From contig JBEQUD010000285.1 in assembly GCA_040349235.1 (NCBI GenBank), positions 1 to 30,173 of the forward strand: a stretch of DNA of 30,173 bases. The letters run 5' to 3'. The notes beneath the pieces were generated by a model that was not told where the DNA came from, did not search any database, and worked only from the letters and a program-made list of their open reading frames with translations. This document shows, in pieces, positions 9,067 through 25,760 of this stretch. The translations under genes were made by a program, and so were the position numbers. How positions within the stretch are numbered: position 1 is the stretch's first letter; each line of letters opens with the position of its first letter. Origin of the DNA: Acidobacteriota bacterium. GTDB taxonomy: Bacteria; Acidobacteriota; Vicinamibacteria; Vicinamibacterales; CAVVIG01.

Positions 9067-9318
9067 ATGCCCGACCCCTTCGCCCGGTTCGTATCGGCCC
9101 GCAGTGTGTTCGTCGAAGATGCCGCCGCGCTGCTCGGCGTGTCGCGACGCACGATTTACTACCGGATTCGGGACGGGAAGCTCGCGACGATTCGTACCCG
9201 GGGCGGATCGCAGCGTGTGCTCGTCGAGTCGATCGGCGCGCTGTTGAGGCAGGAACGGCGGGCGAGGCAGGTGCGGGGGAGGACCGACGGCGTCAGAGCC
9301 CTAACCGATGGCGCTTGA
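9067..9318 (+). CDS. Small excisionase/BldC-like (MerR-type, HTH_17) DNA-binding protein, 83 aa
   Basis: VEDAAALLGVSRRTIYYRIRDGKLATIR pattern; 30/45 identical to the N-terminus of the subtilase at 14255-16324. Confidence 0.85.
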   Translation: MPDPFARFVSARSVFVEDAAALLGVSRRTIYYRIRDGKLATIRTRGGSQRVLVESIGALLRQERRARQVRGRTDGVRALTDGA

Positions 9319-12019
9319 GATACAGGCCCTTGCGTGAGATGCCCAGCGCCCGTGCCGCGGCGTCCACCCGGCCGTGGTGTTCTCGAAGGGCGACCTTGAT
9401 CATCTCGCGCTCGACCTGCGCGAGCGTGGTGTTGAGCTTGTTCGTCAGGCCAACCGCGATCTCGCGCCCGCCCGCGGGCGGTGTGGATGGGGTGCTGACC
9501 TCACGCGCCCGTCCGATGTCCGGAGACAGCAGACTCGTCGCGAGGACCGAGTGCGACTCGGCGATCGCGACGATCCGTCGGATCTCATTCTGGAGCTGCC
9601 GGACGTTGCCGGGCCATTCGTAGAGGACAAGCCGCTCCATCGCCTCCTCCGAGATGCGGACGTGCGTCTTCCTGAATTCCTCGGAGGCTCGCATCAGGAA
9701 GTTGCTCACGAGCGTCGGGATTTCGTCCCGCCGCTCGCGCAAGGGCCGCAGGGAGAGCCGGACGATGTTGAGCCGATAGAAAAGGTCTTCGCGGAAGCGT
9801 CCCTCTTTGACGAGGGCCTCGAGCTTCGAGTTGGTCGCCGCGACAATCCGCACGTCCACGACGAACGGCGCAGACTCGCCAAGCGGGCAGATCTCGCCGG
9901 ACTCCAGGAAGCGGAGCAGCTTGGGCTGCAACTCCAGGCTCAGTTCCCCGACTTCGTCGAGGAACAGCGTGCCATCCCGAGCGCTACGGATTACGCCAGG
10001 ATTGTCCCGATCCGCACCTGTGAAGGCCCCGCGGCGGTGACCGAACAACTGGCTCTCGAGCATCTCCCGTGGGATAGCCGCGCAGTTGAAGGGGACGAAG
10101 GGATGCTTGGCGCGACTCGAGTGTGTGTGGATGGCGCGCGCGACGACCTCCTTGCCCGTTCCGCTCTCGCCGGTGATGAGCACGCCGATGTTCGCGTGGG
10201 CGATCTTCTTCGCAAAGGTGATGACCTCGCGCATGTGACCGACCGTTACCGCGCCATCGCCGTCCGCCGGCAACTCGTCGATCGGCCAGAGCGTCGCGCG
10301 CTCCTCCCGCTCGGCCCGCGCGCATTCGAGGTCCCGCAGTGTCGCGACGATGAGGCCGATGGCGTTGACGGTTGCAATGGACTCGAGATCGTCTTTGGGT
10401 GTGAGCACGAGACTGACGTCTCGCTCCCCAGCCTTGCCGATCGCGACCCGCCGTCCGCCGCGCCGGCACCGTCGCTCGGGCTCCCCCGTTTCCGCCAGCG
10501 TCTCGACAACGCCATCGGTGCCGCGTGCCTCCGCTGCCGCGTGCCACACACTGCCTGTCTTGCCGAGCAGGTCGATCAACTCGGTCGCGATGAGGATGGG
10601 CCGACCAACATGGAGCGTGAGGGATGCCACGCTGTGCAGAGCGCTTGAGGGCGATAGGAATTGCTCGTCCGAATCTATCTCTGCGTTTGGGGAATTGGAA
10701 CACGCTCTTTCCCAAGCGTTCGCAAGCTCGAGCGCTCCGGCGTGATGCTGAAGGTCGCCAAAGATTCTTGCCGAGCGCCGGCGGTGGCAATCACCGGCGC
10801 CCATTTGGCCGGCTCGAACTGTCGCGCAGGCGAGAACTCGTTCATAGTGCGCAGAGAAATCTGGTGGCTGTTGAGGAATGGATAGCATGAGGTCTCGAAG
10901 AATCGAGCCACACTCATCCAATCGGCCGGCCTCCTGCAGGAAGTCCGCCTTCGATAGCGAGGCGATATTGCCGAAGAACTCGTCTTTTGCGCGCGTCGCG
11001 AGGCCGATCACAAATTCGATCTGACGGAGAGCTCCATCAATGTCGCCTTGTCGAGCCAATAAGACCGCGCGGGTCATCTGGGCGTGCCGGTATACGAACC
11101 TAGCCTGATCACCGCTCTCGCGCGCCTCCGACTCAATTTCATCAAGAACCCTAGCGCAGTTAGCGATGTGATCTTGTGCAAGATGAATACGAGCCAGAGT
11201 GTCAAGGCACCCTACCCAGGTATCCGATCCCCTCCTCGTTGTTCTTGCGCGCGTCAAGAAATCGTAGGCCTCGTCAAACCTTCCGGCAAGGTAGGCTAAG
11301 TGGCCGAGATTGCCAAGGGCACTCTCTCGAATGCTGGAAGCCCCGGCGTCCTCGGCGATGTCAAGCGACGTGCGCGCGTGCGTATTGGCTGCGACGAAGT
11401 TGGAGCACATTGTCTCGACCGCGCACGCCACATTCTCCACTAACGCCTCTAGCCAACGGTTTCCTGAGGAGGCCAGCCCGCGCCTTCCCATTTCCAGGTG
11501 GCGACGTGCGTTTCTCAGCAAACCCCGCTTGGCCTCTGTCTCCGAGACGTGGATATGAAGAGCGGCGACAATTCCAGAATTGCCGGTGTTCATAACGCGT
11601 GAGCGAAGTTCTGCCAGCATCGAGGCGATCGAATCCGGGCCAGAACGGTCGGAAAGGACGAGCAGGAGTCTCAACTGGGCCCAGCAAGCACGCTCTTGAT
11701 CATTGCCCTCAAGCGCAAGCGTCACCGCTCGCTGGAGTTGCGCGGTTGCAATTGCTGAATGGCCGTGCTCAATATTCACTCGGGCCAGCACGAGTTCACA
11801 GGAACTGCGCTCGGAGGGACTTAGGCCCTTCCCACGCAGCAGCGATTCCGCAAGCGCTGAACTCTTCTCGTATTGGCCTAGTCGTTCGAGTAGTTCTGCC
11901 CGTAGAACATCCGTCGATCGGCGGACGACGCCGATTGAGGCTGTATCTCGAAGAATTGCCAGCGCTTCTCTGAAGCGTCCCGCGTCGCGTAAGGCCTTGG
12001 CCTCATCCATGTGCACCAT
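9293..12019 (-). CDS. Sigma54-dependent activator (bEBP): TPR-like N-terminus + AAA+ + Fis HTH, no receiver domain
   Basis: Walker A GESGTGKE, FGHRRGAFTGA, Walker B LFLDEVGE, REDLFYRL, WPGNVRQLQN, C-terminal AAARALGISRKGLY; helical Ala/Leu repeats in the N-terminal ~470 aa. Start uncertain (TTG 12106, ATG 12019 or ATG 12010). Confidence 0.93.
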   Translation of the reverse strand: MVHMDEAKALRDAGRFREALAILRDTASIGVVRRSTDVLRAELLERLGQYEKSSALAESLLRGKGLSPSERSSCELVLARVNIEHGHSAIATAQLQRAVTLALEGNDQERACWAQLRLLLVLSDRSGPDSIASMLAELRSRVMNTGNSGIVAALHIHVSETEAKRGLLRNARRHLEMGRRGLASSGNRWLEALVENVACAVETMCSNFVAANTHARTSLDIAEDAGASSIRESALGNLGHLAYLAGRFDEAYDFLTRARTTRRGSDTWVGCLDTLARIHLAQDHIANCARVLDEIESEARESGDQARFVYRHAQMTRAVLLARQGDIDGALRQIEFVIGLATRAKDEFFGNIASLSKADFLQEAGRLDECGSILRDLMLSIPQQPPDFSAHYERVLACATVRAGQMGAGDCHRRRSARIFGDLQHHAGALELANAWERACSNSPNAEIDSDEQFLSPSSALHSVASLTLHVGRPILIATELIDLLGKTGSVWHAAAEARGTDGVVETLAETGEPERRCRRGGRRVAIGKAGERDVSLVLTPKDDLESIATVNAIGLIVATLRDLECARAEREERATLWPIDELPADGDGAVTVGHMREVITFAKKIAHANIGVLITGESGTGKEVVARAIHTHSSRAKHPFVPFNCAAIPREMLESQLFGHRRGAFTGADRDNPGVIRSARDGTLFLDEVGELSLELQPKLLRFLESGEICPLGESAPFVVDVRIVAATNSKLEALVKEGRFREDLFYRLNIVRLSLRPLRERRDEIPTLVSNFLMRASEEFRKTHVRISEEAMERLVLYEWPGNVRQLQNEIRRIVAIAESHSVLATSLLSPDIGRAREVSTPSTPPAGGREIAVGLTNKLNTTLAQVEREMIKVALREHHGRVDAAARALGISRKGLYLKRHRLGL

Positions 12020-12109
12020 TGCGTCGCTCGTTTCATGTGGGGTGAGAGCCAAACTCTTCCATATTCCGTAGCTGTTTTGGAAGTGATAATGGATGAGCCT
12101 CGACAAGAA

Positions 12110-12129
12110 GCGTGCAAATTGTGGGTGAC
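12110..12129. promoter_or_regulatory. Candidate operator GCGTGCAAATT-N3-GGTG (copy 1)
   Basis: 15/18 identical to 16530-16547; resembles the NtrC box TGCAC-N7-GTGCA. Confidence 0.45.
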
Positions 12130-12209
12130 CGAGAAGGCTGTGCCTGTCCCCCTCTCGGATCGCAACGCCCTCCGACGCCAGGGCAGGCCATGGCGTGGCC
12201 AGGCCGCGT

Positions 12210-14198
12210 CTAGCCCTCTTGGCGACGAACCACTACTGACCTGGCGGCGAACGGCACGGTGTCTAGTGCGCCGGCCACGATCTGTGTCTGGCAGATGTCA
12301 CCAAAACTATCCCACAGGGAATCATGGCCGCGCGCTATTGCTTCGAGCGCCCGTCGGTCGCCGTCGCTAAACCCATTCTCAGAGGCTGTGTAGAGGGTAA
12401 TCACTCCGAGGAATCGTTTGCTGCTGGTGAGCGGGGTGCTCAGGCACGCTTGGAGGCCGCGGTCTAATGCAATGTCTCCAAGGTCGAGGGCTGCCGCCGA
12501 ATTAAGGATGGTCTGGTTGTTCACGGCTACCCAACCACTCAGGCGCTGTCCCAGAGGTATTCTCAAGGTATCCAGGTCTGCCGCGCCGGCGCCGAACGCC
12601 GCCGCAACTTCTAGCTCGTCGATAGCTCGGTTGTTGATGAAAAGCACACCCAGTGAAAAATCAATCGACGCGCTCGTCAGCGCGCGCAAACGTTCTGTTG
12701 CGTCGAAATGAGACTGAAGCGCCAAAGAGTCTGGCATCGTGCCGTCGCTGCGCTTGCTCTCCTCCGGCAACCGGTGCGGAGCTTGAAAACTCGCCTGGGT
12801 GGCCGCGACGATCTCTCGAAGTGCGTGTCTAGGAGGCCCAAGCGATGTCTCTTTGGGCGCAATGTCCCTGTAGACCCTGGCGAAAGTATCCACGACTAGG
12901 GGATCGTACATTGATCCCCGTCTCTCCTGCAGGATGGCCAGTGCCGCCTCGTCGGAGAGGCGAGGACGATATGGTCTGTCTGATGTCAATGCATCGAAGC
13001 AATCGACAACCGAGAGAATCCTGGCGCCAATGGGGATGTTGGTTCCGCAAAGTCCCTCAGGATATCCGGTGCCATTCCAGCTTTCGTGGTGACACCTAAC
13101 GATGGGAACGACTGGATACGGAAAGTCGATCGCTCCGAGGATATCGGCGCCGATTGTTACGTGCAACTTCATTTTTTCAAACTCGACCGGCGTGAGCTTG
13201 CCCGGCTTGTTCAGGATGTACTCGGGTACAGCCAGCTTGCCCATGTCATGAAGCAAGGCGGCCGCCTCGATCGCCTTGATGAGCTTTTCATCGCTTACGC
13301 CAAGCTCCTTTGCGAGCCCGACCGCGTAAGCCTGCACCCGTCTAATGTGCCCGTGGGTGATCTGATCTTTGGCGTCTATCGCCATTGCCAGTGTTTCGAT
13401 CGTCGAGAGATACAGTGTGTTCAATTGCCCAACGTGTCTGTAGGCGTCCTCCACTCGTTCCATTGATGTCTTGAACGTGAAATAGAGCACAAGTAAGAGA
13501 GGCACCACGATCCCAACAAACCGCAAGTCGATGGTTCTGTTGTAGCCCACAAGGAGTACGGCGACTGACGCGCCGCAAAAGTAGTTGAGGGAAAGCCACA
13601 CGAACCCGTCACGCCAGACGTCAAGGACGTTTGCTCGTCGGTGGATGGCAATGCGCACAGCGATTAGTCCACTGTTGAGGCCGAAGTATGTAACTGCGAA
13701 CAGAACTAGAGACGGTAGGATCTGGTTCAGTGAGGCGGGCTGTTCGGACAGCGGCGCAATCCCGGAGGCCTTAAAGAATAGTTGCGCGGAGCACCAGGCT
13801 GACAATGCGGGCGCCGCTATATTGAACAGCACTCGCTCCACTTCCGGACGCCGTTTGGCTAGCCAGAAGGAGATAACCAGGCCGTCAAGGGCGACAGTGA
13901 GCGTTCCGGCTGATGGCCCGTATAGAAGGACGGCCGCGAAGACGAAGGCTTCGGAGATTGAGATGGTTACGTTCGTTCGAGGCAGTTCGACGCCGGCTGA
14001 GCCGCTGATCAGCGTCAGAAGACCAAGAAGCAACCATTGGGCGCCAATAGGTACGCGGTAAAGATGAACAAGGGATTCCCCGATCGCGAGGAATCCCATG
14101 AGGATCACGAGGAATACGAATGTCCTGCCGAGGCGAGACAAGGGTGAGCCAGTGGATGCCGTGGGCCAAGCAGTTATCGGTTGTTTAGTCCCAAACAA
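12210..14198 (-). CDS. HD-GYP cyclic dinucleotide phosphodiesterase with ~7-TM N-terminal sensor and C-terminal GAF
   Basis: DAKDQITHGH, LLHDMGK, HHESWNGTGYP, VDCFDALTSDRPYR all intact; hydrophobic N-terminal ~240 aa; GAF-like GLSGW-type segment (QRLSGWVAVN) and STPL...GVITLY...FSDGD. Start uncertain (TTG 14198). Confidence 0.92.
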   Translation of the reverse strand: MFGTKQPITAWPTASTGSPLSRLGRTFVFLVILMGFLAIGESLVHLYRVPIGAQWLLLGLLTLISGSAGVELPRTNVTISISEAFVFAAVLLYGPSAGTLTVALDGLVISFWLAKRRPEVERVLFNIAAPALSAWCSAQLFFKASGIAPLSEQPASLNQILPSLVLFAVTYFGLNSGLIAVRIAIHRRANVLDVWRDGFVWLSLNYFCGASVAVLLVGYNRTIDLRFVGIVVPLLLVLYFTFKTSMERVEDAYRHVGQLNTLYLSTIETLAMAIDAKDQITHGHIRRVQAYAVGLAKELGVSDEKLIKAIEAAALLHDMGKLAVPEYILNKPGKLTPVEFEKMKLHVTIGADILGAIDFPYPVVPIVRCHHESWNGTGYPEGLCGTNIPIGARILSVVDCFDALTSDRPYRPRLSDEAALAILQERRGSMYDPLVVDTFARVYRDIAPKETSLGPPRHALREIVAATQASFQAPHRLPEESKRSDGTMPDSLALQSHFDATERLRALTSASIDFSLGVLFINNRAIDELEVAAAFGAGAADLDTLRIPLGQRLSGWVAVNNQTILNSAAALDLGDIALDRGLQACLSTPLTSSKRFLGVITLYTASENGFSDGDRRALEAIARGHDSLWDSFGDICQTQIVAGALDTVPFAARSVVVRRQEG

Positions 14199-14211
14199 TT
14201 ATTGGCTTCAT
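14185..14211 (-). CDS. Putative micro-ORF MKPIIVWD
   Basis: ATG AAG CCA ATA ATT GTT TGG GAC TAA preceded by GAGAG; IVW-D resembles the adjacent SIVWS(G/D) repeats. Translation unproven. Confidence 0.3.
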   Translation of the reverse strand: MKPIIVWD

Positions 14212-14254
14212 GCGCTCTCGTCAACCCTCGGGTTTCGGGCGGCCACTCAGGAGC

Positions 14255-16324
14255 CTAGTCGAGTGTAGCGCCTGACCAAACAATGGATTGTCCGGTTGCG
14301 TCTGACCAAACGATGGACTGGCCTGTCGAGCCTGACCAGACAATGGATTGATTTGTCGCGTCGGACCAAACGATGGAGTCTGACCAAACAATTGATCCAG
14401 ACCACACGATAGACTTTGCATCGAGCATCTGGCTCGACCACTGGATGGGTTCATTTGAGCCCGACCACACGATTGAGTTTGCGCCGGGCGCTGCCCCAGA
14501 CCACACAATTGATCCCGACCAGACGATCGATCCCGACCAGACGATCGATCCCGACCAGACGATTGAATGTGGCGAGAGCCGTGAGCCCGACCAGACGATC
14601 GAGTCAGACCACACGATTGAATCAGGTCTCACTCTCGCCCCGGACCAGACGATCGAGACCGTACGGACGAGACTTCCGGACCAGACTATTGAATTCCCCA
14701 GTAAGAGCCGTTGGCCTCCTGGAGTGTTTCTTGCCAAGATTCCGCTGCCCACCGCCCTTTCTCCAGCGATCTGCGTCGCTGGCAACACTCCGTTAAGGCC
14801 GACTTCGATGAAGTCTGCAGCGGCGAGCACGTTCAGACTTCCAGAGCCACCATCAAGAATCCCGACCGCTGGCGAGAACGAGCTGGTGAGCTGCAGGATC
14901 GTCTTCGTTTCCCCCGGCTGTAGTCCGCCTCTTTCGTCCAGTAGTAACGCGGCGGCGCCGCTGACCACCGCCGCGGCCATGCTCGTGCCCGAGAGCTGCA
15001 TGTAGGCGTTGGCCCCGGTGCCGCTGACGTGCCGCTGCGGATAGTTCGTGCTGAGGTACGAGTTCGCGGATTCGGCCCCGTGGATGTGGGCGCCGGGCGC
15101 CGCGAGGTCCGGCTTCAGGACGCGATCGTAGGCGGTTGGGCCGCGCGAGCTCCAGGGGGCCACGGTGTCGTCCGAGCGCTGGGGTGTGTCGTGCGTGTCG
15201 AGGGCGCCGACCGTCAGGGCGTAGGGACTGTTGCCAGGGGACGTGATGCCGCCGATGACGTTCTTGCCGTCCGCGGTCTGGCCGAAATTGCCGGCCGCCG
15301 CGACGACGAGGATTCCGGCGCGCGTCGCCCGTTCGACGGCCTCGCACAGCGGGTCGTCGCGGAACGGCTGCAGGACGGGGGCGCCGAGCGACAGATTGAT
15401 GATGCGGATGTTGAACTGGCCGCGGTGGCGGATGGCCCAGTCGATGGCCTCGACGACGTCGCTTGCATTGCCGGAGCCGTCGGCGCCGAGGGCGCGCAGG
15501 TTGATCAGCCTGGCGCCGTACGCGATGCCGCGGTAGCTGGCCGCGGAGTTGCGCGAGAGACCGGCGATGATCGAGGCAACGTGGGTGCCGTGCCCGTAGC
15601 GGTCCTGGCCGTTGCCGCCGGTGAAGTCCACGGATGCCACGACGCGGTTGCGGAGCGCCGCGTGCGTCGTATCAATCCCGGAATCGATGACGGCGACGCC
15701 GACGCCGTTGCCCGAGAGCGGGTCGAGTGCGCCGGCGCCAGCCCATACCTGATCGGCGCCAATCGACTCCGCGGTGACGTCCGCGAGGGACTGCACGCGG
15801 CTGTCGCTCGAAAGGTGATCGATGGCGTCGTCCTGTTGCAGGGCGTCGAGCTGGCCGGAATTGACGCGGACGACCGCGCCGCTCTCCAACTTTCGCTTGA
15901 TGACAAGGTTGTACTTCCGGGCGATGCCGGTCACTTCCTGGTCGCTGCCGTGGACGATGACGTTGATGTCCTGTCCGCCTCGGTTCAGGCGGTCTGCCAG
16001 GTCCGAACTGAGTCGTGCGCGGTGCTGGGCAGCGGCGGGTCTGATGCAGAGCGCGAGTAATAGGACGGCCGTGCCGGCTGTGCGGGCTTGTTGCCGCCAC
16101 GCCGAGACTGGGGCTGGGGCGGGATCCCGCAATTCCACGATCGACTCGAGCAGCACGCGCTTGGATGCACCAAACGTTCGCACCGTCCGGAGGCGGCCCT
16201 CGCTGATCCTGCTGTACACCGTTCGGCGCGACACGCCGAGCAGCGCCGCCGCTTGGTCGATGGAAACGCTGCGACCGACGAGCACGTCGTGAGTCGGACG
16301 AGAGAAGTCCTGAGACAGGGGCAT
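14255..16324 (-). CDS. S8 subtilase with N-terminal HTH_17 domain, internal signal peptide, prodomain and C-terminal SIVWS repeat tail, 689 aa
   Basis: Catalytic triad VAVIDSGID, HGTHVA, GTSMAAA; oxyanion AAGN; GGAGG RBS before ATG 16324. Confidence 0.94.
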   Translation of the reverse strand: MPLSQDFSRPTHDVLVGRSVSIDQAAALLGVSRRTVYSRISEGRLRTVRTFGASKRVLLESIVELRDPAPAPVSAWRQQARTAGTAVLLLALCIRPAAAQHRARLSSDLADRLNRGGQDINVIVHGSDQEVTGIARKYNLVIKRKLESGAVVRVNSGQLDALQQDDAIDHLSSDSRVQSLADVTAESIGADQVWAGAGALDPLSGNGVGVAVIDSGIDTTHAALRNRVVASVDFTGGNGQDRYGHGTHVASIIAGLSRNSAASYRGIAYGARLINLRALGADGSGNASDVVEAIDWAIRHRGQFNIRIINLSLGAPVLQPFRDDPLCEAVERATRAGILVVAAAGNFGQTADGKNVIGGITSPGNSPYALTVGALDTHDTPQRSDDTVAPWSSRGPTAYDRVLKPDLAAPGAHIHGAESANSYLSTNYPQRHVSGTGANAYMQLSGTSMAAAVVSGAAALLLDERGGLQPGETKTILQLTSSFSPAVGILDGGSGSLNVLAAADFIEVGLNGVLPATQIAGERAVGSGILARNTPGGQRLLLGNSIVWSGSLVRTVSIVWSGARVRPDSIVWSDSIVWSGSRLSPHSIVWSGSIVWSGSIVWSGSIVWSGAAPGANSIVWSGSNEPIQWSSQMLDAKSIVWSGSIVWSDSIVWSDATNQSIVWSGSTGQSIVWSDATGQSIVWSGATLD
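14270..14692 (-). repeat. Intragenic repeat: 15 x SIVWS(G/D) plus one PIQWSS variant
   Basis: Counted from manual translation: 11 end in G and 4 in D; codons vary between copies; 18-nt tandem array at 14513-14566. Confidence 0.97.
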
Positions 16325-16353
16325 CGTGAAGTCCTCCGGTTTCCGTGTGTAAA

Positions 16354-16369
16354 CGCACGCCCGATACCA
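16354..16369 (-). promoter_or_regulatory. Candidate sigma54 promoter for the subtilase gene
   Basis: TGGTATcgggcGTGCG has GG-N10-GC spacing; implied +1 near 16343, about 19 nt before the ATG, with GGAGG in between. Weaker match than the 9040 site. Confidence 0.5.
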
Positions 16370-16405
16370 CACGGCGCACCCGGCAGGCGTTCGCTGTTTG
16401 TCTGC

Positions 16406-16420
16406 TGTAAGTCGCTTACA
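16406..16420. promoter_or_regulatory. Palindrome TGTAAG-N3-CTTACA
   Basis: Perfect 6-bp inverted repeat upstream of the subtilase promoter candidate. Confidence 0.45.
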
Positions 16421-16529
16421 TCCAGTTGTTTAGCTCTAGGGACTCAGCCGCGGCGCATCTCGAGAGACGGCACGATTCGGCCAAGAAACTGTCCAGTTGG
16501 CACGGTCTCTCGCGGTGGCTCGCTATTTT

Positions 16530-16549
16530 GCGTGCAAATTTCAGGTGCT
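16530..16549. promoter_or_regulatory. Candidate operator/enhancer GCGTGCAAATT-N3-GGTG (copy 2)
   Basis: TGCAaatttcaGGTGCt resembles the NtrC consensus; about 190 bp upstream of the implied +1. Confidence 0.45.
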
Positions 16550-16714
16550 CGGCTGGACGGTATGGGAATTTTGCCGGTCAAGAAACTAGCCACCAGGCCA
16601 GGAATCAGACAGACAGAAGAGGATAGAGGGCGTCACTATGCGCACCGGTACGCAACGCACGCCGGGGGGCGCGTCGCCGTGGCCCGAGGCCCCCTAACGT
16701 ACAATGCCGCGCAC

Positions 16715-17605
16715 ATGACCTTCACGGGTGTTCTTGCACCAATTCCGACACCGTTCAACGAGACGGGAGCGTGCGATGCCGACCGTCTCCGTCGCGCCCT
16801 GACACGGTGGATGGCGACGCCGCTGGCGGGCGTCGTCGTTCTCGGGACGAGCGGGGAAGCGCATCTGGTGGACGACGACGAGGCCGACCGGGTCGTCGGT
16901 GTGGCGCGGGAGTGCGTGCCGGCGGACCGCGCCTTCATCGTGGGGGCGGGTCGCGAATCGACCGCGTGCACGATTCGCGCGGTCGCTCGGGCGGCGCGCC
17001 TCGGTGCCGATGCCGTGCTCGTCCGCACGCCTGGGGCGTTCAGGAATCAGATGACAGACGAGGCGTTGACCGCGCACTACACGGCCGTGGCGGATGCGGC
17101 CACCGTGCCGGTGCTCTTGTACAACTTCCCCGCGCTCACGGGCGTGTGCCTCTCGGCCGGGGCGGTGGCACGGCTGGCGACGCACCCGAACATCGTCGGC
17201 ATCAAGGACTCGAGCGGCGACGTGGCGCAAATTGCGGCGTTTGCCGCCGCGGCGAGCGACTCCTTCACGGTGCTCTCGGGCTCGGGGTCCACGTTCGACG
17301 CCGCGGTGTCGTGCGGTGCAGGCGGGGGGATTCTCGCGCTGGCCTGTGTGCTGCCGGCGGCGTGCGTCGAGCTGTTTGGGCTGGCGAGGGCGGGGGAGGG
17401 CGAGGCCGCACGGATGCTCCAGGCGCGTCTGCTTTCCGTCGCGCGGCTCATTGGGGCGCAGTACGGTATCCCGGGCCTGAAAGCCGCAGCCTGTCTCGCT
17501 GGTTACGACGTTGGCGTGCCGCGGCTGCCGTTGGCGCCCGCTCCACCCGAGGCGGTCGGCGCGATCGCCGAGGCCCTTCGCGCGTTCCAGACATCCGCGG
17601 TGTGA
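16715..17605 (+). CDS. Dihydrodipicolinate synthase family aldolase (DapA/HOGA-like)
   Basis: PIPTPF, LGTSGE, LYNFP, NIVGIKDSSGD (Schiff-base Lys); start ATG 16715. Confidence 0.92.
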   Translation: MTFTGVLAPIPTPFNETGACDADRLRRALTRWMATPLAGVVVLGTSGEAHLVDDDEADRVVGVARECVPADRAFIVGAGRESTACTIRAVARAARLGADAVLVRTPGAFRNQMTDEALTAHYTAVADAATVPVLLYNFPALTGVCLSAGAVARLATHPNIVGIKDSSGDVAQIAAFAAAASDSFTVLSGSGSTFDAAVSCGAGGGILALACVLPAACVELFGLARAGEGEAARMLQARLLSVARLIGAQYGIPGLKAAACLAGYDVGVPRLPLAPAPPEAVGAIAEALRAFQTSAV

Positions 17606-17648
17606 AGGACGCCCGCCGACGAGCCGACACTACAATGGCAGGATCCCC

Positions 17649-18380
17649 GTGGTGTCGGTTGTGCTTCGTAGGCTCGTTTCCTTTCTCCTCGGCGCCGCCG
17701 CTGCCGGCTTCGTGTGCCTGTCTTATGTCTATTTGACGCTGCCCGACGTCCTGCCGCTCAAGACGTCCAATCCCCCCACGACGGCATTCATCGAATTGCG
17801 CGCCAGAGAAGCCCGCGCCAAGGGAAGCGCGCCGAAGCGGATCCAGCGGTGGGTCGGCTATCGGCACATCTCGCCGCATCTGACGCGCGCGGTGCTCGTC
17901 GCCGAGGACGACGCGTTCTGGCAGCACGAGGGGGTGGACTTCGAGCAGATGCAGGAATCGCTCGAACTCGATTGGGCGCGAGGGCGGTTCGTGCGCGGCG
18001 GCAGCACCATCACGCAGCAGCTCGCCAAGAACCTGTACCTGTCGCCGTCGCGGAACCCGCTCCGGAAGTTCCAGGAACTGATTCTGGCGCGGCGGCTCGA
18101 AGCGGAACTGAGCAAGACGCGCATCCTCGAGCTGTACTTGAACGTCATCGAATGGGGCGACGGTATCTACGGCGCTGAAGCGGCCGCCCGCACGTACTTT
18201 CACGAAGCGGCCTCCGACCTCGGCCCCGCGGAGTCGGCCTTGCTCGCCGGCGCGATCATCAATCCGCGCGTGTTGAGCCCGGCACATCCCACCGGCCGCC
18301 TGGTGCGGCGGCAGGCACTCATCATGAAGCGCGCGGCGGGCGTGTCGCCGCCGCGCGAGGCGCTCGATGACGCGCGCTGA
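17649..18380 (+). CDS. mtgA: Monofunctional peptidoglycan transglycosylase
   Basis: AEDDAFWQHEGVDF, GGSTITQQLAKNLYL, RKFQE, LELYLNVIEWG; N-terminal TM. Start GTG 17649 or 17661. Confidence 0.9.
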   Translation: MVSVVLRRLVSFLLGAAAAGFVCLSYVYLTLPDVLPLKTSNPPTTAFIELRAREARAKGSAPKRIQRWVGYRHISPHLTRAVLVAEDDAFWQHEGVDFEQMQESLELDWARGRFVRGGSTITQQLAKNLYLSPSRNPLRKFQELILARRLEAELSKTRILELYLNVIEWGDGIYGAEAAARTYFHEAASDLGPAESALLAGAIINPRVLSPAHPTGRLVRRQALIMKRAAGVSPPREALDDAR

Positions 18381-18446
18381 CCGGGCCGTGCGTCTTGCGC
18401 CGGCGTGCGGCGTCCGATATAGTCACCGCACTTCAGTCGATCCCAC

Positions 18447-19370
18447 ATGATCAATTACACGGACCACCTCACGATGTTGATGAAGGACATCGTGTCCCGT
18501 GTCCCTGTCCTGTCGTTCATCGATACGCGCGACGTGCTGGTGTTCGCCAGGTTCGGTCGCTCGCATGCCGAAGGCGCATTTGCGACGTGCCATTGCCTGA
18601 ACCTGCCGCCGAGTGAGCCGGGCCACTACTTCTGGAGGGATCGAGCCAGCGGGCGCATCACGCGTCGCTCGGAGTGGTTCGTCACCAGGTCGCCGCGCGT
18701 CAGCGTCGCCGGGCGCAGCGTGAAGTACCTGGTCTCGTTCGCCCTCCCGCGCTTCTGCGATCAGTCGCTGGAAGGGTCGCGCAAGGCGCTGCTGTATCCC
18801 CGGCTCGAACCGTGGGTGGCGAAACTGGATACGGTCGTCCACGAGCTCTATCACATCGACCCGCAACTCGGCGGCATCCGCCGGATCGCGCGCGAGGACG
18901 GCGCCTATCTGGTCAACTCGCACAGTCCCCGTTTTTTCGAGCAGGTGGCCGCGATTGTCCGCGCGTACCTGGATACGCACCCCGACCCAGGGATTACGGA
19001 TTTCTTGCGCCACGATTTCGCCGGCCTCGAAGCGCGGCACGGCGGGGTGATCGGCGCCAGCTTCCGGACGTTCCCGTCGTTTCCGCAGCGATACATCGAG
19101 CGGCTGGCCGAACAGGTCCCGGCCGACACCGACGCGGGCGACGTCAAGATCGAGCCGTTGCGGCCGCAGCGGCAGCCGACCGTCTACACGGAAGACGATC
19201 TCGACCTGCGCCACTTCTCGGAGAGCAGGTCGAGGCGACTCGCAGTCCACGAGCCGGATGCGGCTGGCGCGCGCGAAGAATCCCGGCGTCTCAATTCCGA
19301 GCGGCTGCGGCGCGAGCCGGCACGAGCCGCCGAGCACCCAGGTAGCGCGCGGACCAGTAAGGCGCGCTGA
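18447..19370 (+). CDS. Putative zinc metallopeptidase (HExxH)
   Basis: KLDTVVHELYHIDP; host-like codon usage; TATAGT box at 18418-18423. Confidence 0.7.
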   Translation: MINYTDHLTMLMKDIVSRVPVLSFIDTRDVLVFARFGRSHAEGAFATCHCLNLPPSEPGHYFWRDRASGRITRRSEWFVTRSPRVSVAGRSVKYLVSFALPRFCDQSLEGSRKALLYPRLEPWVAKLDTVVHELYHIDPQLGGIRRIAREDGAYLVNSHSPRFFEQVAAIVRAYLDTHPDPGITDFLRHDFAGLEARHGGVIGASFRTFPSFPQRYIERLAEQVPADTDAGDVKIEPLRPQRQPTVYTEDDLDLRHFSESRSRRLAVHEPDAAGAREESRRLNSERLRREPARAAEHPGSARTSKAR

Positions 19371-19869
19371 GGCTCTCCACGCGCACGACGCCACTCGAGC
19401 TGGGCGCGTGCACGAATTGGTCTCCCCCGATGGCAATCGCCACGTGCGTGGCGTCCATCGCTTCCCGAGCCGTCGCGAAAAAGATCAAATCCCCCACGGC
19501 AAGCTCGCCGGCCCCGGTCGCTACGCCCTGCTGGAACTGGGTTCTGACGTCGCGCGGCAGCACGATGCCGTGCTGGGCGTAGACGTACTGCGTGAAGCCG
19601 CTACAGTCGAACCCGCGCGGGGTGGTCCCACCGTTCAGATACGGCACCCCCCGTAGCGCCAACGCCGTCCCGACCACAGCGGGATTGCCCGCAGAGGGGC
19701 CGCGTTCTGCTGACGTGCGCTGGTCGCTCGGCGAGGGAAACGGATGGGGCATCGCGCCGCGCGCGGCGCACCCGCCCGATGCGAGAAGCCCGAGCACGAG
19801 GAGCACGCCCGCGGCGACCGGTGCGGCCGCCTTGCTAACCCCATGTTTCACAGCAGTTACAGGGCCCAT
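19291..19869 (-). CDS. NlpC/P60 (C40) cell-wall peptidase, predicted lipoprotein
   Basis: GVPY..GG...GFDCSG, VGDLIFF, HVAI, FVHAPSS; hydrophobic signal ending in ASGGC. Start uncertain. Confidence 0.92.
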   Translation of the reverse strand: MGPVTAVKHGVSKAAAPVAAGVLLVLGLLASGGCAARGAMPHPFPSPSDQRTSAERGPSAGNPAVVGTALALRGVPYLNGGTTPRGFDCSGFTQYVYAQHGIVLPRDVRTQFQQGVATGAGELAVGDLIFFATAREAMDATHVAIAIGGDQFVHAPSSSGVVRVESLSAPYWSARYLGARRLVPARAAAARN

Positions 19870-19872
19870 TTC

Positions 19873-19902
19873 TTGACACCCCGCCGAGCGTCGGGGCACA
19901 AT
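19873..19902 (+). promoter_or_regulatory. Candidate sigma70 promoter for the HNH gene
   Basis: TTGACA-N18-CACAAT; the spacer contains the inverted repeat CCCCG...CGGGG. Confidence 0.5.
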
Positions 19903-19937
19903 TCCTTCATCACGGGAGCGTCAGCTCCTACTCGTAC

Positions 19938-20471
19938 ATGGAACAGACGCTGCTTCTCAACGCGTCGTACGAACCTCTCAAGATCGTTCACTGGCAAAAG
20001 GCGGTGACGCTGTGGTGCCAGGGAAAGGTCGAGGTTATCTCTGTGTACGACAGAGAAGTCCGGGCTGTTTCCTTCAGCTTCAAGCTCCCCTCGGTCATCC
20101 GCCTGCTCAGGTATATCAAGATCAAGCGCCGGTTCGACTACGTCCCGTTCTCGCGCGCCAACATCTACGCGCGGGACGACCACAGGTGCCAGTATTGCGG
20201 CGATGCCTTCTCGACCAGCGAACTGACATTCGACCACGTGGTGCCGGTCGCGCAGGGCGGGCGAAAGGACTGGGAAAACATCGTCAGCGCCTGTGTCACC
20301 TGCAATCGGACCAAGGGCGGCCGCACGCCGGACGAGGCTGGCATGCACCTGCTTCGTGTGCCCAAACGGCCGGAGTCGGCACCGGCCCTCCGTATCACTA
20401 TCGGTCTGCGGAACGCGCCCGATAGCTGGCGCGATTATGTCTACTGGAACGCCGAACTGGACGATACATAA
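19938..20471 (+). CDS. HNH endonuclease family protein
   Basis: RDDHRCQYCG, LTFDHVVPVAQGG, WENIVSACVTCNRTKG; N-terminal LLLNASYEPL of a widespread chromosomal subfamily. Confidence 0.92.
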   Translation: MEQTLLLNASYEPLKIVHWQKAVTLWCQGKVEVISVYDREVRAVSFSFKLPSVIRLLRYIKIKRRFDYVPFSRANIYARDDHRCQYCGDAFSTSELTFDHVVPVAQGGRKDWENIVSACVTCNRTKGGRTPDEAGMHLLRVPKRPESAPALRITIGLRNAPDSWRDYVYWNAELDDT

Positions 20472-20477
20472 TAGTTG

Positions 20478-21467
20478 ATGCCCGTCCGCGTCTTCTCGCT
20501 CCATCCCCCGGCGGCCATCGAGGGCGGCCGCATCACGATCGAAGGCGCGAACTTCCCGATCGATCAGCCCGAGCTACCCGAGGTCCGCGTCGCTGATGTG
20601 CGCGCCCGCGTGGTGTTCGCGTCGTCGCAGCGTCTCGCCGTGCTCGTCCCGTCGGGCCTCGACAGCGGGCCGGCGCCCGTCTCCGTGGAGGACGTAACGG
20701 GGCCGGCGTCCATCAACGTGGCCCTGCCCTTCGCGACCGGTCTCCATCAGGTCGATAACCCGGTCTTCGATGCGACCGGGAGCCTGTACGTCACCTACAG
20801 CGGCTCTCGCGGCCAGCAGGTACCCATCTCCATCTTCCGCGTGCGCCCGAACGGTACGCGCGAAACCTTTTCCGCCGGCGTCGTCAATCCCACCTCCATG
20901 GCGGTCTCGCCAGACGGCGTGTTGTATGTCTCGAGCCGCTTCGAGGGGACCGTCTACCGGGTGGGCGAAGACGGTTCGGTCGAGACGTTCGCGACGGATC
21001 TCGGGGTGGCGTGCGGCCTGGCATTCGATCGGGAGGGAACGCTGTTCGTCGGCGATCGATCGGGGACGATCTTTCGCATCGACGCCGGGGGACGCACATC
21101 GACGCTGGCGTCGCTGCCGTCGAGCGTCGCGGCGTTCCACCTCGCGTTCGGTCCTGACGGCAGACTCTACGTGACGGGACCGACGCTGGCGACGTACGAC
21201 GCCGTCTACGAAATCGATCGCGACGGCAAGGTCGGGGTCCGGTCAACCGCGTTCGGCCGTCCGCAGGGCATTGCGTTCGATGCCCACGGCGATCTGTTCG
21301 TCGTCGAAGCACTCGCCGGCAAGAGCGGTCTTTATCGCCTGAAGGAAGGCGCGGTGCCCGAACTCGTGCTGGCTGGCCCGGGGCTGGTCGGCGTGGCGTT
21401 CGACCAGGTCGGCGGCCTGGTGGTGTGTTCGAACGACACGGCCTACCGCCTGACGCGGTTCCCCTGA
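20478..21467 (+). CDS. IPT/TIG domain + beta-propeller (SMP-30/NHL-like) protein
   Basis: AAIEGGRITIEGANF Ig-like start; repeated (M/L/I)A(F/V)xxDGxLYV blades; 6 nt after the HNH stop. Confidence 0.75.
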   Translation: MPVRVFSLHPPAAIEGGRITIEGANFPIDQPELPEVRVADVRARVVFASSQRLAVLVPSGLDSGPAPVSVEDVTGPASINVALPFATGLHQVDNPVFDATGSLYVTYSGSRGQQVPISIFRVRPNGTRETFSAGVVNPTSMAVSPDGVLYVSSRFEGTVYRVGEDGSVETFATDLGVACGLAFDREGTLFVGDRSGTIFRIDAGGRTSTLASLPSSVAAFHLAFGPDGRLYVTGPTLATYDAVYEIDRDGKVGVRSTAFGRPQGIAFDAHGDLFVVEALAGKSGLYRLKEGAVPELVLAGPGLVGVAFDQVGGLVVCSNDTAYRLTRFP

Positions 21468-21500
21468 CCGCATACGTGCCTTCCGTTCATCACCCGTCCA

Positions 21501-23198
21501 TCAATCGGGCAAACCGAAGACGCACAGCGACAGCCCCGACACGGTGGCGACGTATTGTTTGCCGTCCACCGCGTAGGTCATCGGGCCGTTGATGATTTGC
21601 GCGCCGAGGCTCGCCTTCCACAAGAGGGTTCCCGTGCGGGCGTCGAGCGCCTGGAAGTAGCCCTCGCGGCCGCCCGCGAACAGGACGTCCGTGGCGGTCG
21701 TCAGGACGCCGCTGTCGGTGACGTCGGTCATGGGGAACTTCCATTTCTGTGCGCCCGTGGTGGGGTCCAGTGCGATCACGGCGCCGGTCGCGGCCGTTTC
21801 CGTCCAGTTGTTGATCGGGCCTCGGCGGCCCAGGCCCGGCAGGTCCGGGGCGCCGGGCACGGGTTCGAGCGGCCGGTGGCCGCCACCGCCGAAACCGCGC
21901 CCCTCTTGGTACTCCGCGGGGACGCTGTTGAAGAACATCGCGTAATTCTCCCAGGCGGAAAGGTAGAACAACTTCGTATGCGGGCTGTATGAGGGCGAAA
22001 ACCAGTTCGTCCCACCCTGATTGCCCGGCCACGTCGGCTGCCCCGGGGGTTGCGGCGTCTGGACGGGCCGCCCGTGCTCGTCGATGCCACTGGCCCAATT
22101 CAGCTTCACGAAGGGCTTGCCGAGCAGGAACTGTCCCGTCGCGCGATTCAAGACGTAGAAGTAGCCGTTCCGGTTCGCCCAGAGCATCGCCTTCAGCGGC
22201 GCGCCGCGCCACGTGATGTCGGCGAGCACCGGTACCTGCACGGCGTCGTAGTCGTAGCGATCGTGCGGCGTGAACTGGTAGTGCCACTTCAACGCACCCG
22301 TATCGGCATCGAGGGCGACGACCGAGTCGGTGTAGAGGTTGTCGCCGGGGCGCTGGTCGGCGTTGTAGTCGGGCCCTGCGTTGCCGACGCCCCAGTAGGT
22401 GAGGTTGAGTTCGGGATCGTACGACCCGGTTACCCAAATAGAGCCGCCGCCATGCTTCGCGGCGGCGGGGTCGCAGAATGTTGTCTGGGTGGGAGGGCAC
22501 GGCTCCCAGGTCTCGTATCCCGCCTCGCCGGGGCCAGGAATCGTGTAGAACCGCCAGGCCTCCTTGCCGCTGCGCGCGTCGTACGCGGCGATGAACCCGC
22601 GGATGCCGAACTCGCCGCCCCCGACGCCGATGAGCACTTTGTCCTTGATCACAAGCGGCGCCAGCGTGATCGAGTAGCCCGTCTTGTTGTCGGCCACCCT
22701 GACGTTCCACAGCGGGCGTCCCGACCTGGAGTCGATAGCGACGAGATGGGCGTCGAGGGTGCCCATATAGAGCGTGTCGCCGAGCATCGCGAGGCCGCGA
22801 TTGTTCGCCCCGCAGCAGACGAGTTGGACGGGATCGACCGCGTAGCGGTAGATCCAGAACACGCGCCCGGTCTTCGCATCGAGCGCGACGACGTCGTTCG
22901 GCCGCTGGGTCACGTACATGATGCCATCGACCACGAGCGGGCTCGTCTGCCACCCGCCTGCGGCCGCGGCCTGGTACATCCATTTCAATTCGAGGTTCTT
23001 GACGTTGGCCGTCGTGACCTGCGTGAGGGTGCTGTAGCGCTGGGACAGATACGTACCCGAGTAGGTGACCCAATTTGGCGCGTCCTTCGCGGCATTCAGC
23101 AGCCGGTCGTAGGTAACCTGGGCCTGCGCGGTGACGAGCGACGCGGCCCCCACGACGAATCCGAGGGCCGCGAGAACGAACCGTGACTGTGTGCGCAC
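21501..23198 (-). CDS. PQQ-dependent dehydrogenase (methanol/ethanol family), paralogue 3
   Basis: Signal peptide from GTG 23198 (GGAG RBS); VCCG vicinal cysteines; GGGEFG; WGVGN; HDRYDYD; Trp-docking repeats. Confidence 0.94.
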   Translation of the reverse strand: MRTQSRFVLAALGFVVGAASLVTAQAQVTYDRLLNAAKDAPNWVTYSGTYLSQRYSTLTQVTTANVKNLELKWMYQAAAAGGWQTSPLVVDGIMYVTQRPNDVVALDAKTGRVFWIYRYAVDPVQLVCCGANNRGLAMLGDTLYMGTLDAHLVAIDSRSGRPLWNVRVADNKTGYSITLAPLVIKDKVLIGVGGGEFGIRGFIAAYDARSGKEAWRFYTIPGPGEAGYETWEPCPPTQTTFCDPAAAKHGGGSIWVTGSYDPELNLTYWGVGNAGPDYNADQRPGDNLYTDSVVALDADTGALKWHYQFTPHDRYDYDAVQVPVLADITWRGAPLKAMLWANRNGYFYVLNRATGQFLLGKPFVKLNWASGIDEHGRPVQTPQPPGQPTWPGNQGGTNWFSPSYSPHTKLFYLSAWENYAMFFNSVPAEYQEGRGFGGGGHRPLEPVPGAPDLPGLGRRGPINNWTETAATGAVIALDPTTGAQKWKFPMTDVTDSGVLTTATDVLFAGGREGYFQALDARTGTLLWKASLGAQIINGPMTYAVDGKQYVATVSGLSLCVFGLPD

Positions 23199-23253
23199 GT
23201 TGTCTTCACTCCGACAGGACAGGACACTCGCCAACAGGCGGCCCAGGCTTTTG

Positions 23254-25733: not shown

Positions 25734-25760
25734 GTCTACCCCCAATCGATGGCGTCGTCG

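Follow-up and report, generated by a model that had tools for sequence, protein, structure and literature searches.

A Trp-centred hexapeptide repeat tail on a predicted secreted subtilase of a soil acidobacterium, encoded beside a MASE9-HD-GYP-GAF protein

The analysed window, a stretch of 30,173 nucleotides (GCA_040349235.1, contig JBEQUD010000285.1, positions 1 to 30,173) from an acidobacterium of the order Vicinamibacterales, contains an open reading frame at 14255-16372 on the minus strand, encoding an intact subtilase of 705 amino acid residues. From its N-terminus, the deduced protein consists of an HTH_17 domain (16133-16264, minus strand; PF12728, 31.4 bits), a hydrophobic signal/TM segment at residues 97-115 (16028-16084, minus strand), a pro-region, a Peptidase_S8 catalytic domain (14882-15712, minus strand) and a C-terminal tail comprising residues 556-705 (14258-14707, minus strand). 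The HTH_17 domain is fused in frame in this window, as in the homologues P0002 and P0005, whereas it is a separate small gene in most relatives. The hydrophobic segment, read directly from the sequence, ends in PAAA/Q and aligns with the Sec signal peptides of homologues. The catalytic domain scores 178.6 bits with PF00082 (cut-off of 21.8) and contains the triad Asp230, His261 and Ser464 together with the oxyanion Asn362, within the motifs DSGI, HGTH, GTSM and NFG, and it was modelled by AF2 with pLDDT above 90. No Pfam or NCBIfam model reached its cut-off for the tail.

The tail carries 15 SIVWS(G/D) units (11 SIVWSG and 4 SIVWSD) at residues 561-701 (14270-14692, minus strand), plus one PIQWSS at residues 642-647 (14432-14449, minus strand), and tandem repeat analysis (TRF) detected periods of 18, 30 and 54. 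This confirms the observation of an earlier note, made from the sequence alone, that the hexapeptide is conserved as protein but not as DNA. Codon usage is as described there: the first Ser is encoded by TCA (6), TCG (4), TCC (4) and TCT (1), Ile by ATC (10), ATT (4) and ATA (1), Val by GTC (7), GTG (4) and GTT (4), and the second Ser by TCG (5), TCA (4), TCC (3) and TCT (3). The 15 units have 13 different DNA versions, with a pairwise codon identity of 0.32 at the four degenerate codons, about what random pairing of the codon pool gives, while there is no amino acid change in the five core residues. Recent duplication as the cause of unit identity is thus rejected for this window, although it does hold for some relatives, where codon identity is 0.8-1.0. 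Two details of the note required correction: the spacers are 0, 4 or 6 residues long (spacings of 6, 10 and 12) and not 0-8, apart from the 15-residue stretch that holds PIQWSS, and bases 14255-14257, included in the tail by the note, are the stop codon. In addition, residues 561-638 form 13 hexads in one unbroken register, since each of the 6-residue spacers (SLVRTV, ARVRPD, SRLSPH and AAPGAN) fills exactly one hexad.

Immediately downstream of the protease gene lies a mini-ORF (14185-14211, minus strand), in another frame than the protease, encoding MKPIIVWD plus a stop codon. It is followed by a gene for a MASE9-HD-GYP-GAF c-di-GMP phosphodiesterase (12210-14198, minus strand), whose true start is probably the TTG at codon 20. 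This protein matches HD_5 (140.6 bits), HD and GAF_2 of Pfam, with HD at position 317 and GYP at position 378, and its MASE9 domain (about 13503-13946, minus strand) scores 24.9 bits against a cut-off of 24.3. A further conserved member of the cluster, a TPR sigma54 enhancer-binding protein, is encoded at 9293-12106 on the minus strand. The order HTH_17, S8-tail, mini-ORF of 8-9 codons, MASE9-HD-GYP-GAF and TPR sigma54 activator is strongly conserved in related genomes, and a peptide ABC importer (SBP_bac_5) faces the cluster in 17 of 20 loci from 10 families, but is missing in this window. A window-specific low-GC cassette acquired by gene transfer is rejected, because the same GC3 mosaic is the median pattern of 51 orthologous loci (S8 and AAA+ about 0.87, tail 0.72, HD-GYP 0.60-0.65 and TPR 0.58).

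A near single-copy orthologue of the subtilase was found in 251 of 401 genomes of the order, nearly all of them carrying tails of x-[ILV]-[ILVFM]-W-[GSTA]-[DNEG] units, which excludes chance as the origin of the repeats. Each protein is uniform inside, but proteins differ from one another. Only the core of 5-6 residues is kept, whereas spacing varies from 6 to 13 residues and copy number from 4 to 33. In 28 of 70 orthologous tails with at least 6 identical units, codon identity among the units is below 0.48, so that selection on the peptide itself, as proposed in the note, is supported not only in this window. Orthologues without a tail mostly carry the Trp units in another frame or behind a stop, pointing to assembly errors or pseudogenes and not to loss of the tail. 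In a phmmer search of 1.84 billion representatives, the hits carrying Trp units were C-termini or fragments of S8 peptidases, while the other hits were ordinary hexapeptide-repeat proteins or low-complexity sequences. No paper covering the tail was found: full-text searches for the motif strings of the tail and of the mini-peptide returned nothing relevant, and neither did a search for Vicinamibacter combined with subtilisin or c-di-GMP. The S8-tail and HD-GYP genes are adjacent in both the primary and the paralogous loci. The latter have a fixed three units in conserved, non-repetitive surroundings, which looks like a folded domain; since their motif follows all domains alike, they give no independent test of co-variation.

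Evidence for a defined fold of the tail is weak. AF2 gave pLDDT values of 35-55 for the tail with a 95-sequence alignment, and a mean of 47 for the tail fragment (residues 520-705) folded alone. The Hexapep family (PF00132) matched the tail alone at E 0.005 with 16.8 bits, below the Pfam cut-off of 27, and its signature [LIV]-[GAED]-x2-[STAV]-x fits only in part in any register, although the period of six residues holds for 13 hexads. Weak NCBIfam hits were all LbH proteins, and the PDB sequence hits were left-handed beta-helix proteins, almost all of the gamma-carbonic-anhydrase/hexapeptide-transferase kind (best E 9e-4). LbR_Ice_bind (PF21300) gave no hit for the tail of this window, but scored above its cut-off of 30 for the tails of 7-8-residue units of the homologues P0020 (35.5 bits) and P0112 (30.9 bits). 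The ESM Atlas model of the tail, of modest quality, is nearest to beta-helices such as AIDA/Ag43 passengers and bactofilin (TM 0.59-0.72). These hints, together with the strict register and a motif typical of beta-solenoids (beta-branched residues, then Trp, then a G-D/N turn), leave room for a doubtful but serious alternative, namely that the tail folds into a beta-ladder or beta-solenoid with stacked Trp and Ile, stays attached, and docks on, or is held by, the MASE9-HD-GYP protein, thereby coupling c-di-GMP state with protease location or activity in the manner of LapD holding LapG. In-register ladders favour identical residues, which would explain both the uniform units and the joint change of all three units in the paralogues, and docking would also explain the co-variation described below. 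On the other hand, the periods of 6 to 13 and the irregular spacing of orthologues are hard to fit to one solenoid, and MASE9 has only very short periplasmic segments.

Whether the repeat type co-varies with the sensors had been named in advance as a test of the note's interpretation, and the outcome is mixed. Within families, the tail motif correlates with the MASE9 sequence (r 0.47 for its first half and 0.31 for its second half, both p 0.001), but not with eight control domains, including the TPR domain of the sigma54 activator (r 0.05, p 0.6); values range from -0.19 to 0.13 for the S8 pro-region, the catalytic domain, its last 70 residues, the pre-repeat linker, the HD-GYP catalytic domain, GAF, TPR, AAA+ and HTH. 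A co-variation with TPR seen in a first small sample vanished in the larger one. Mantel tests were likewise positive for MASE9 only, although their p-values are inflated by relatedness. Two MASE9 classes, matching S-I-V-W and T-x-x-W tails respectively, lie interleaved on the backbone tree and occur together in one genus. A strict independent-pairs test found only 3 supported contrasts (7 on all branches), all in the same direction, but with so few events the sign test cannot reach 0.05. Loci L001 and L002 were left out of all statistics and trees, L006 was left out of the Mantel, within-family and clustering sets (it still counts among the mini-ORF loci), L004 and L005, identical to L089 and L009, were left out of the mini-ORF and independent-pairs sets, and loci with fewer than 4 units or cut by a contig end were also excluded.

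As MASE9 lies next to the tail on the DNA, linkage or gene conversion could contribute to this correlation, and the tail might be an ordinary C-terminal extension, serving for folding, anchoring to envelope or substrate, or oligomerisation, without any specific tie to the sensor. Such extensions are common in subtilases, the correlation falls with distance on the 3' side (0.47, 0.31 and 0.05), the tail and the mini-ORF share DNA words and match weakly at positions -1 and +2, and in the paralogues the motif follows every domain equally. This explanation is nevertheless considered unlikely, because the sequence directly 5' of the repeats, equally close and equally variable, does not follow the motif (r -0.01 to 0.09), because GAF and the HD-GYP catalytic domain are uncoupled from MASE9 within one gene, and because the Trp units turned up, in the searches run, only on S8 peptidases.

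An ORF homologous to the mini-ORF, with the pattern M-x-x-[ILV]-I-[VI]-W-[GDST]-([DE]), was found in 70 related loci, corresponding by our count to about 70 of 73 primary loci. It starts with ATG in 65, is preceded by a Shine-Dalgarno-like word in 63, uses all three stop codons and shows synonymous variation. Its length of 8-9 codons, the position of Trp 1-2 codons before the stop, its location about 40-60 nt upstream of the HD-GYP start and the frequency of rare codons (ATA, CTA and GTT) would also suit an arrest or Trp-sensing leader comparable to the short erm or trp leaders, with the Trp-rich tail, in which about 10% of codons are TGG, making translation of the operon depend on Trp-tRNA supply. 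This possibility is regarded as very unlikely, since all core residues of the tail are conserved and not only Trp, no significant RNA structure spans the mini-ORF and the HD-GYP start (z -1.57), and AT-rich codons are in any case expected near start codons. Least likely of all is that the tail is an autoinhibitory segment or intramolecular chaperone occupying the active site until its removal. Trp as P1 preceded by hydrophobic residues suits subtilisin-type clefts, and the Trp units found were always attached to an S8 domain, but one unit would be enough where 4-33 identical units are kept, AF2 does not place the tail in the cleft with any confidence, and the co-variation with MASE9 remains unexplained.

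Overall, the tail is probably the signal or docking partner of the MASE9 sensor and not ordinary filler, and the explanation tentatively preferred here, held with less than even confidence, is that it is a tandem array of one short Trp-centred motif supplying the matched ligand of that sensor. In this view, the subtilase would be exported by its Sec signal and activated, and its catalytic domain, or that of sister molecules, would cut the tail after Trp (P1), giving many copies of hexa- to dodecapeptides ending in x-I-V-W; these hydrophobic peptides would enter the inner membrane and be read by MASE9, which would set c-di-GMP hydrolysis, and in most relatives the adjacent importer would take the peptides up. 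Identical units with randomised codons are the pattern of polyproteins whose units each work alone, and Galperin and Chou (bioRxiv 10.1101/2021.11.05.467447) state that the MASE9 ligand is unknown and probably binds within the membrane. The analysis itself establishes the identity of the units under purifying selection, their presence on an intact protease, the order-wide synteny and a conserved mini-ORF for one free copy of a near-identical motif, whereas a switching of motif type together with MASE9 class is indicated by the correlations but has only the few independent contrasts given above; cleavage and release of the peptides, their binding and any effect on c-di-GMP are inferred. Against this explanation, there is no evidence of cleavage and no conserved flanking cleavage site other than Trp itself, the spacers being absent or variable and only Trp and the small residue after it constant, and no precedent is known to us for a bacterial protease carrying its own signal peptides. 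The interpretation offered by the note is therefore only partly supported: none of its three proposed roles (a multi-copy pheromone precursor cut by its own protease, a Trp-ladder beta-solenoid or amyloid-like anchor, and an autoinhibitory tail) is demonstrated. A more far-reaching version, doubtful but compatible with the data, is that the peptides released by the protease from its own polyprotein and the near-identical mini-peptide together form the ligand set of the orphan intramembrane sensor MASE9, with pherotype-like classes (S-I-V-W tail, ...IIVWD mini-peptide and MASE9 class 13, versus T-x-x-W tail, ...LIVWGD mini-peptide and class 9) maintained across genera of an acidobacterial order.

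Acidobacteria are among the most abundant soil bacteria, and almost nothing is known of how they signal. The present data give a concrete candidate ligand, short x-I-V-W peptides, for MASE9, a widespread sensor domain, and point to a link between extracellular proteolysis, peptide uptake, c-di-GMP and sigma54 control conserved across a whole order. If the peptides are released, this would be the first bacterial case known to us of a protease carrying its own multi-copy signal; if the tail stays attached, it is a new Trp-ladder repeat module specific to subtilases that deserves a family model in the domain databases.

Among known systems, multi-copy peptide precursors cut by subtilases, such as yeast alpha-factor and fungal Kex2-processed repeat proteins like the ustiloxin precursor, share the tandem identical short units, the maintenance of amino acid identity while synonymous sites drift (a pattern also exemplified by polyubiquitin) and, if the tail is cut as proposed, an S8 protease as processing enzyme, but in this bacterial system the units are fused to the protease itself, without dibasic or other fixed flanking sites, and their release is only hypothesized. 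In the pherotype cassettes of peptide quorum sensing (agrBDC, comCD), peptide type and membrane sensor domain switch together while the flanking conserved parts do not, as the tail motif and MASE9 appear to do, and distinct classes likewise coexist within one genus; here, however, the sensor is a MASE9-HD-GYP c-di-GMP phosphodiesterase and not a histidine kinase, the peptide is multi-copy and sits on an enzyme, and the statistics are suggestive only. RRNPP systems (Rap/Phr, PlcR/PapR) similarly combine an extracellular protease, an Opp-type importer and a TPR regulator in one neighbourhood, but the TPR domain does not follow the motif here, the regulator is a sigma54 activator and this window lacks the importer. 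The bacterial transferase hexapeptide repeat or left-handed beta-helix (PF00132) and the grass ice-binding beta-roll (PF21300) are comparable in the six-residue period, the weak sequence matches and the beta-helix neighbours of the ESM model, and differ in that the tail of this window scores below the Pfam cut-off, has Trp in every unit, shows varying periods among orthologues and lacks a confident fold. In LapD/LapG of Pseudomonas fluorescens a periplasmic protease is functionally tied to an inner-membrane c-di-GMP protein, as is proposed for the subtilase, but LapG is a cysteine protease bound by a large periplasmic domain of LapD, whereas MASE9 has almost no periplasmic part and no adhesin substrate is seen here. 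Finally, plant BURP-domain peptide cyclases with fused core-peptide repeats unite an enzyme and its repeated peptide substrate in one polypeptide, as is proposed here, although they belong to a different enzyme class, chemistry and kingdom.

The open reading frame at 14255-16372(-) encodes a deduced protein of 705 amino acid residues, in which Pfam profiles identified a Peptidase_S8 domain at residues 221-497 (178.6 bits) and an HTH_17 domain at residues 37-80 (31.4 bits). The catalytic triad Asp230, His261 and Ser464 and the oxyanion Asn362 are present, and a hydrophobic segment at residues 97-115 aligns with the Sec signal peptides of homologues. The HTH_17 domain (16133-16264(-)) is fused in frame in front of the protease signal peptide, as it is in the homologues P0002 and P0005, whereas in most relatives it is a separate gene ending 20-40 nt before the protease gene. 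A second, free-standing HTH_17 gene (9091-9243(+), Pfam 35.8 bits), 61% identical to the domain fused to the protease, lies convergent to the activator gene. The last 150 residues of the protease contain 11 SIVWSG units, 4 SIVWSD units and one PIQWSS. Residues 561-638 form 13 hexads in a single register, the six-residue 'spacers' being themselves degenerate hexads. The 15 perfect units are written in 13 different DNA versions, with a codon identity at the four degenerate codons of 0.32, which is the value expected for random pairing, and without any amino acid change. The repeat array reported in the earlier note, conserved as protein but not as DNA, is therefore confirmed, although the spacers are 0, 4 or 6 residues long and not 0-8 as stated there.

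A word-index search returned more than 6,500 homologues, the best of them at 50-68% identity, a few of which are named by their sources as Vicinamibacterales or Acidobacteria S8 peptidases. Nearly all end in units of the form x-[ILV]-[ILVFMY]-W-[GSTAD]; each protein is uniform, but the proteins differ from one another (SIVWG, TIVWG, TLVWG, SILWG, TIIWS, TIYWG, RIVWGD and others), with periods from 6 to 13 and copy numbers from 4 to 33. In whole genomes the orthologue is near single-copy and was found in 251 of 401 genomes of the order (a tally including one unpublished genome, G401, from which nothing else was used), and in none of the other orders of the class that were sampled. Many contigs end exactly at the tail, and most 'tail-less' copies have the Trp units in another frame. 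Contig ends at the repeat tail were seen, among many other places, in loci L007, L008, L015, L021, L025 and L043-L045, and several long-read assemblies have frameshifts between the catalytic domain and the tail; the tail is a hot spot for assembly errors. Among 70 tails with at least 6 identical units, 28 have a codon identity below 0.48, one example having 18 units in 17 DNA versions, while others are young arrays with identity of 0.8-1.0. The arrays therefore turn over, but old arrays are held identical by purifying selection.

A phmmer search of the tail against 1.84 billion representatives gave 55 hits. Those carrying Trp units are C-termini or fragments of S8 peptidases, including a DNIVWG type from other lineages, and the rest are ordinary hexapeptide-repeat proteins or low-complexity sequences. 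In two loci of another lineage (L146, 6001-11296, and L148, 248-2952), the DNIVWG-tailed S8 peptidases are each followed by an Acetyltransf_3 (RimL/MccE-like) gene, and L146 has two such pairs in tandem. No Pfam or NCBIfam model reaches its cut-off on the window's tail, and full-text literature searches for the motifs found nothing.

Structure prediction with AF2 gave a mean pLDDT of 47 for the tail fragment alone; with a 95-row alignment the catalytic domain scored above 90 and the tail 35-55. Several hints nevertheless point to a beta-helix. The Hexapep model matches at E 0.005, below the cut-off, and the weak NCBIfam hits are all LbH proteins. The PDB sequence hits are left-handed beta-helix proteins, almost all of the gamma-carbonic-anhydrase / hexapeptide-transferase kind (best E 9e-4), and LbR_Ice_bind scores above its cut-off for two homologues with 7-8-residue periods. 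Finally, the ESM Atlas model of this protein (pTM 0.58) has beta-helices as the nearest structures to its tail. Taken together, this amounts to a lead and not to a fold assignment, and an attached beta-ladder that would dock on the sensor protein is retained as the second, rather doubtful, explanation of the tail.

Five metagenomic loci and 120 genome loci were examined for gene order. The arrangement HTH_17, S8-tail, HD-GYP-GAF(-GGDEF) and TPR sigma54 activator recurs across at least ten families, while one group of families lacks the HD-GYP and has 20-33 RIVWGD units. An SBP_bac_5 binding protein, two permeases and a DHDPS-family gene face the cluster in 17 of 20 loci. At 16000-26000 of the window this SBP_bac_5/permease peptide importer is missing, and only the DHDPS-family gene remains, followed by a transglycosylase gene. 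A low-GC3 block (about 10600-14900) covers the tail, the whole HD-GYP gene and the TPR part of the activator; since the same mosaic is the median pattern of 51 orthologous loci, a gene transfer specific to this window is rejected as its explanation. The N-terminal membrane part of the window's HD-GYP is a Pfam MASE9 domain (24.9 bits against a cut-off of 24.3), described by Galperin and Chou (bioRxiv 10.1101/2021.11.05.467447) as a sensor with unknown ligand that probably binds within the membrane.

Some genomes hold a paralogous pair (loci L106-L125, in the same family), consisting of an S8 peptidase with exactly three identical units (QILWGT, IILWGD, TIAWGT and others) in conserved, non-repetitive surroundings, plus an HD-GYP, but without HTH, activator or mini-ORF. 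These paralogues are the strongest point for a folded domain. Their three positionally orthologous units change jointly between close relatives, for example from QILW to IILW within one genus, with codon differences kept. This pattern fits either matching to one partner or in-register stacking.

Whether the repeat type follows the sensors, a test set in the earlier note, was examined by taking the consensus unit of each tail and comparing motif distance with the sequence distance of each domain. In a first set of 25-44 loci, the MASE9 region gave r 0.25-0.50 (p at or below 0.001), whereas all other domains were near zero or negative, except for a weak signal from the TPR domain. Parsimony changes of the motif are fewest on the MASE9 tree (47 against 53-59). 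After the addition of 40 loci, only same-family pairs were used and labels were shuffled within families (62 primary loci). The first and second halves of MASE9 then gave r 0.47 and 0.31, respectively (both p 0.001), as compared with -0.05 for the S8 pro-region, 0.07 for the S8 catalytic domain, -0.01 for the last 70 residues of the catalytic domain, 0.09 for the pre-repeat linker, 0.05 for the HD-GYP catalytic domain, -0.07 for GAF, 0.05 for TPR, 0.13 for AAA+ and -0.19 for HTH. Position -3 of the unit carries most of the signal.

Within genus g81 all S8 catalytic domains are 64-77% identical, but the MASE9 regions fall into two classes (71-90% identical within a class and 44-53% between classes), which match TI[VI]WG and SIVWG tails. 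Three loci from three different families share both the AILW tail and one MASE9 clade, and on a backbone tree the two main classes are interleaved. The GAF domain seems to be exchanged independently, being only 36% identical between loci L014 and L016, although the MASE9 (89-90%) and HD-GYP catalytic (88%) domains of the same genes are close. Mantel-type p-values are inflated by relatedness, and the strict independent-pairs test finds only 3 supported contrasts (7 on all branches), all of which go the same way, although the test cannot reach significance. As MASE9 is the nearest downstream sequence, linkage may contribute, although the equally near upstream sequence shows no association; a structural extension whose co-variation comes from linkage is ranked third and considered unlikely. 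The association is therefore real in the sample and specific to MASE9, but not yet proven as co-evolution, and the TPR domain does not follow the motif. The interpretation offered in the earlier note, which named a lack of co-variation with the sensors among its refuting conditions, is in this respect supported only in part.

A very short ORF between the S8 stop and HD-GYP was found in 70 loci, about 70 of the 73 primary loci by our count. It is 8 or 9 codons long in 65 of the 70, starts with ATG in 65, is preceded by a Shine-Dalgarno-like word in 63 and ends with any of the three stop codons. It reads M-x-x-[ILV]-I-[VI]-W-[GDST]-([DE]), with synonymous variation at the conserved residues. In the window it is MKPIIVWD at 14185-14211(-), in another frame than the protease and about 40 nt before the likely HD-GYP start. 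Its type follows the MASE9 class: class 13 goes with ...IIVWD and class 9 with ...[LV]I[VI]WG[DE]. Tail and mini-peptide agree more often than shuffles at positions -1 and +2 (p 0.004 and 0.009, respectively), but differ systematically at position -3, which is polar in the tail and aliphatic in the mini-peptide. A conserved gene whose whole product is little more than the motif argues that the motif can act as a free short peptide, while ribosome-level control by Trp codons or an arrest peptide, the fourth explanation, is considered very unlikely.

Three linked elements, namely the tail, the mini-peptide and the MASE9 domain, share one motif and change together in the loci sampled. The tail always sits on an active-looking protease, whose family prefers large hydrophobic P1 residues, and each tail unit is selected on its own. 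On these grounds, a model in which the tail would supply released peptides as ligand is tentatively placed first; the identity of the units, their codon pattern and the association with MASE9 are observed, whereas release of the peptides and their recognition by the sensor are inferred. An autoinhibitory role of the tail is ranked last and regarded as the least likely.

No description of this system was found in the literature searched; new here are the order-wide census, the codon analysis, the MASE9-specific co-variation and the rejection of the gene-transfer reading of the GC mosaic. The gene is a member of peptidase family S8, while its tail falls below the curated thresholds of the hexapeptide and ice-binding repeat families. 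In its logic it resembles Kex2-processed multi-copy precursors and pherotype cassettes, with tandem identical core peptides under purifying selection, although release of the peptides is inferred and the spacers between the units are absent or variable, only the Trp and the small residue after it being constant.
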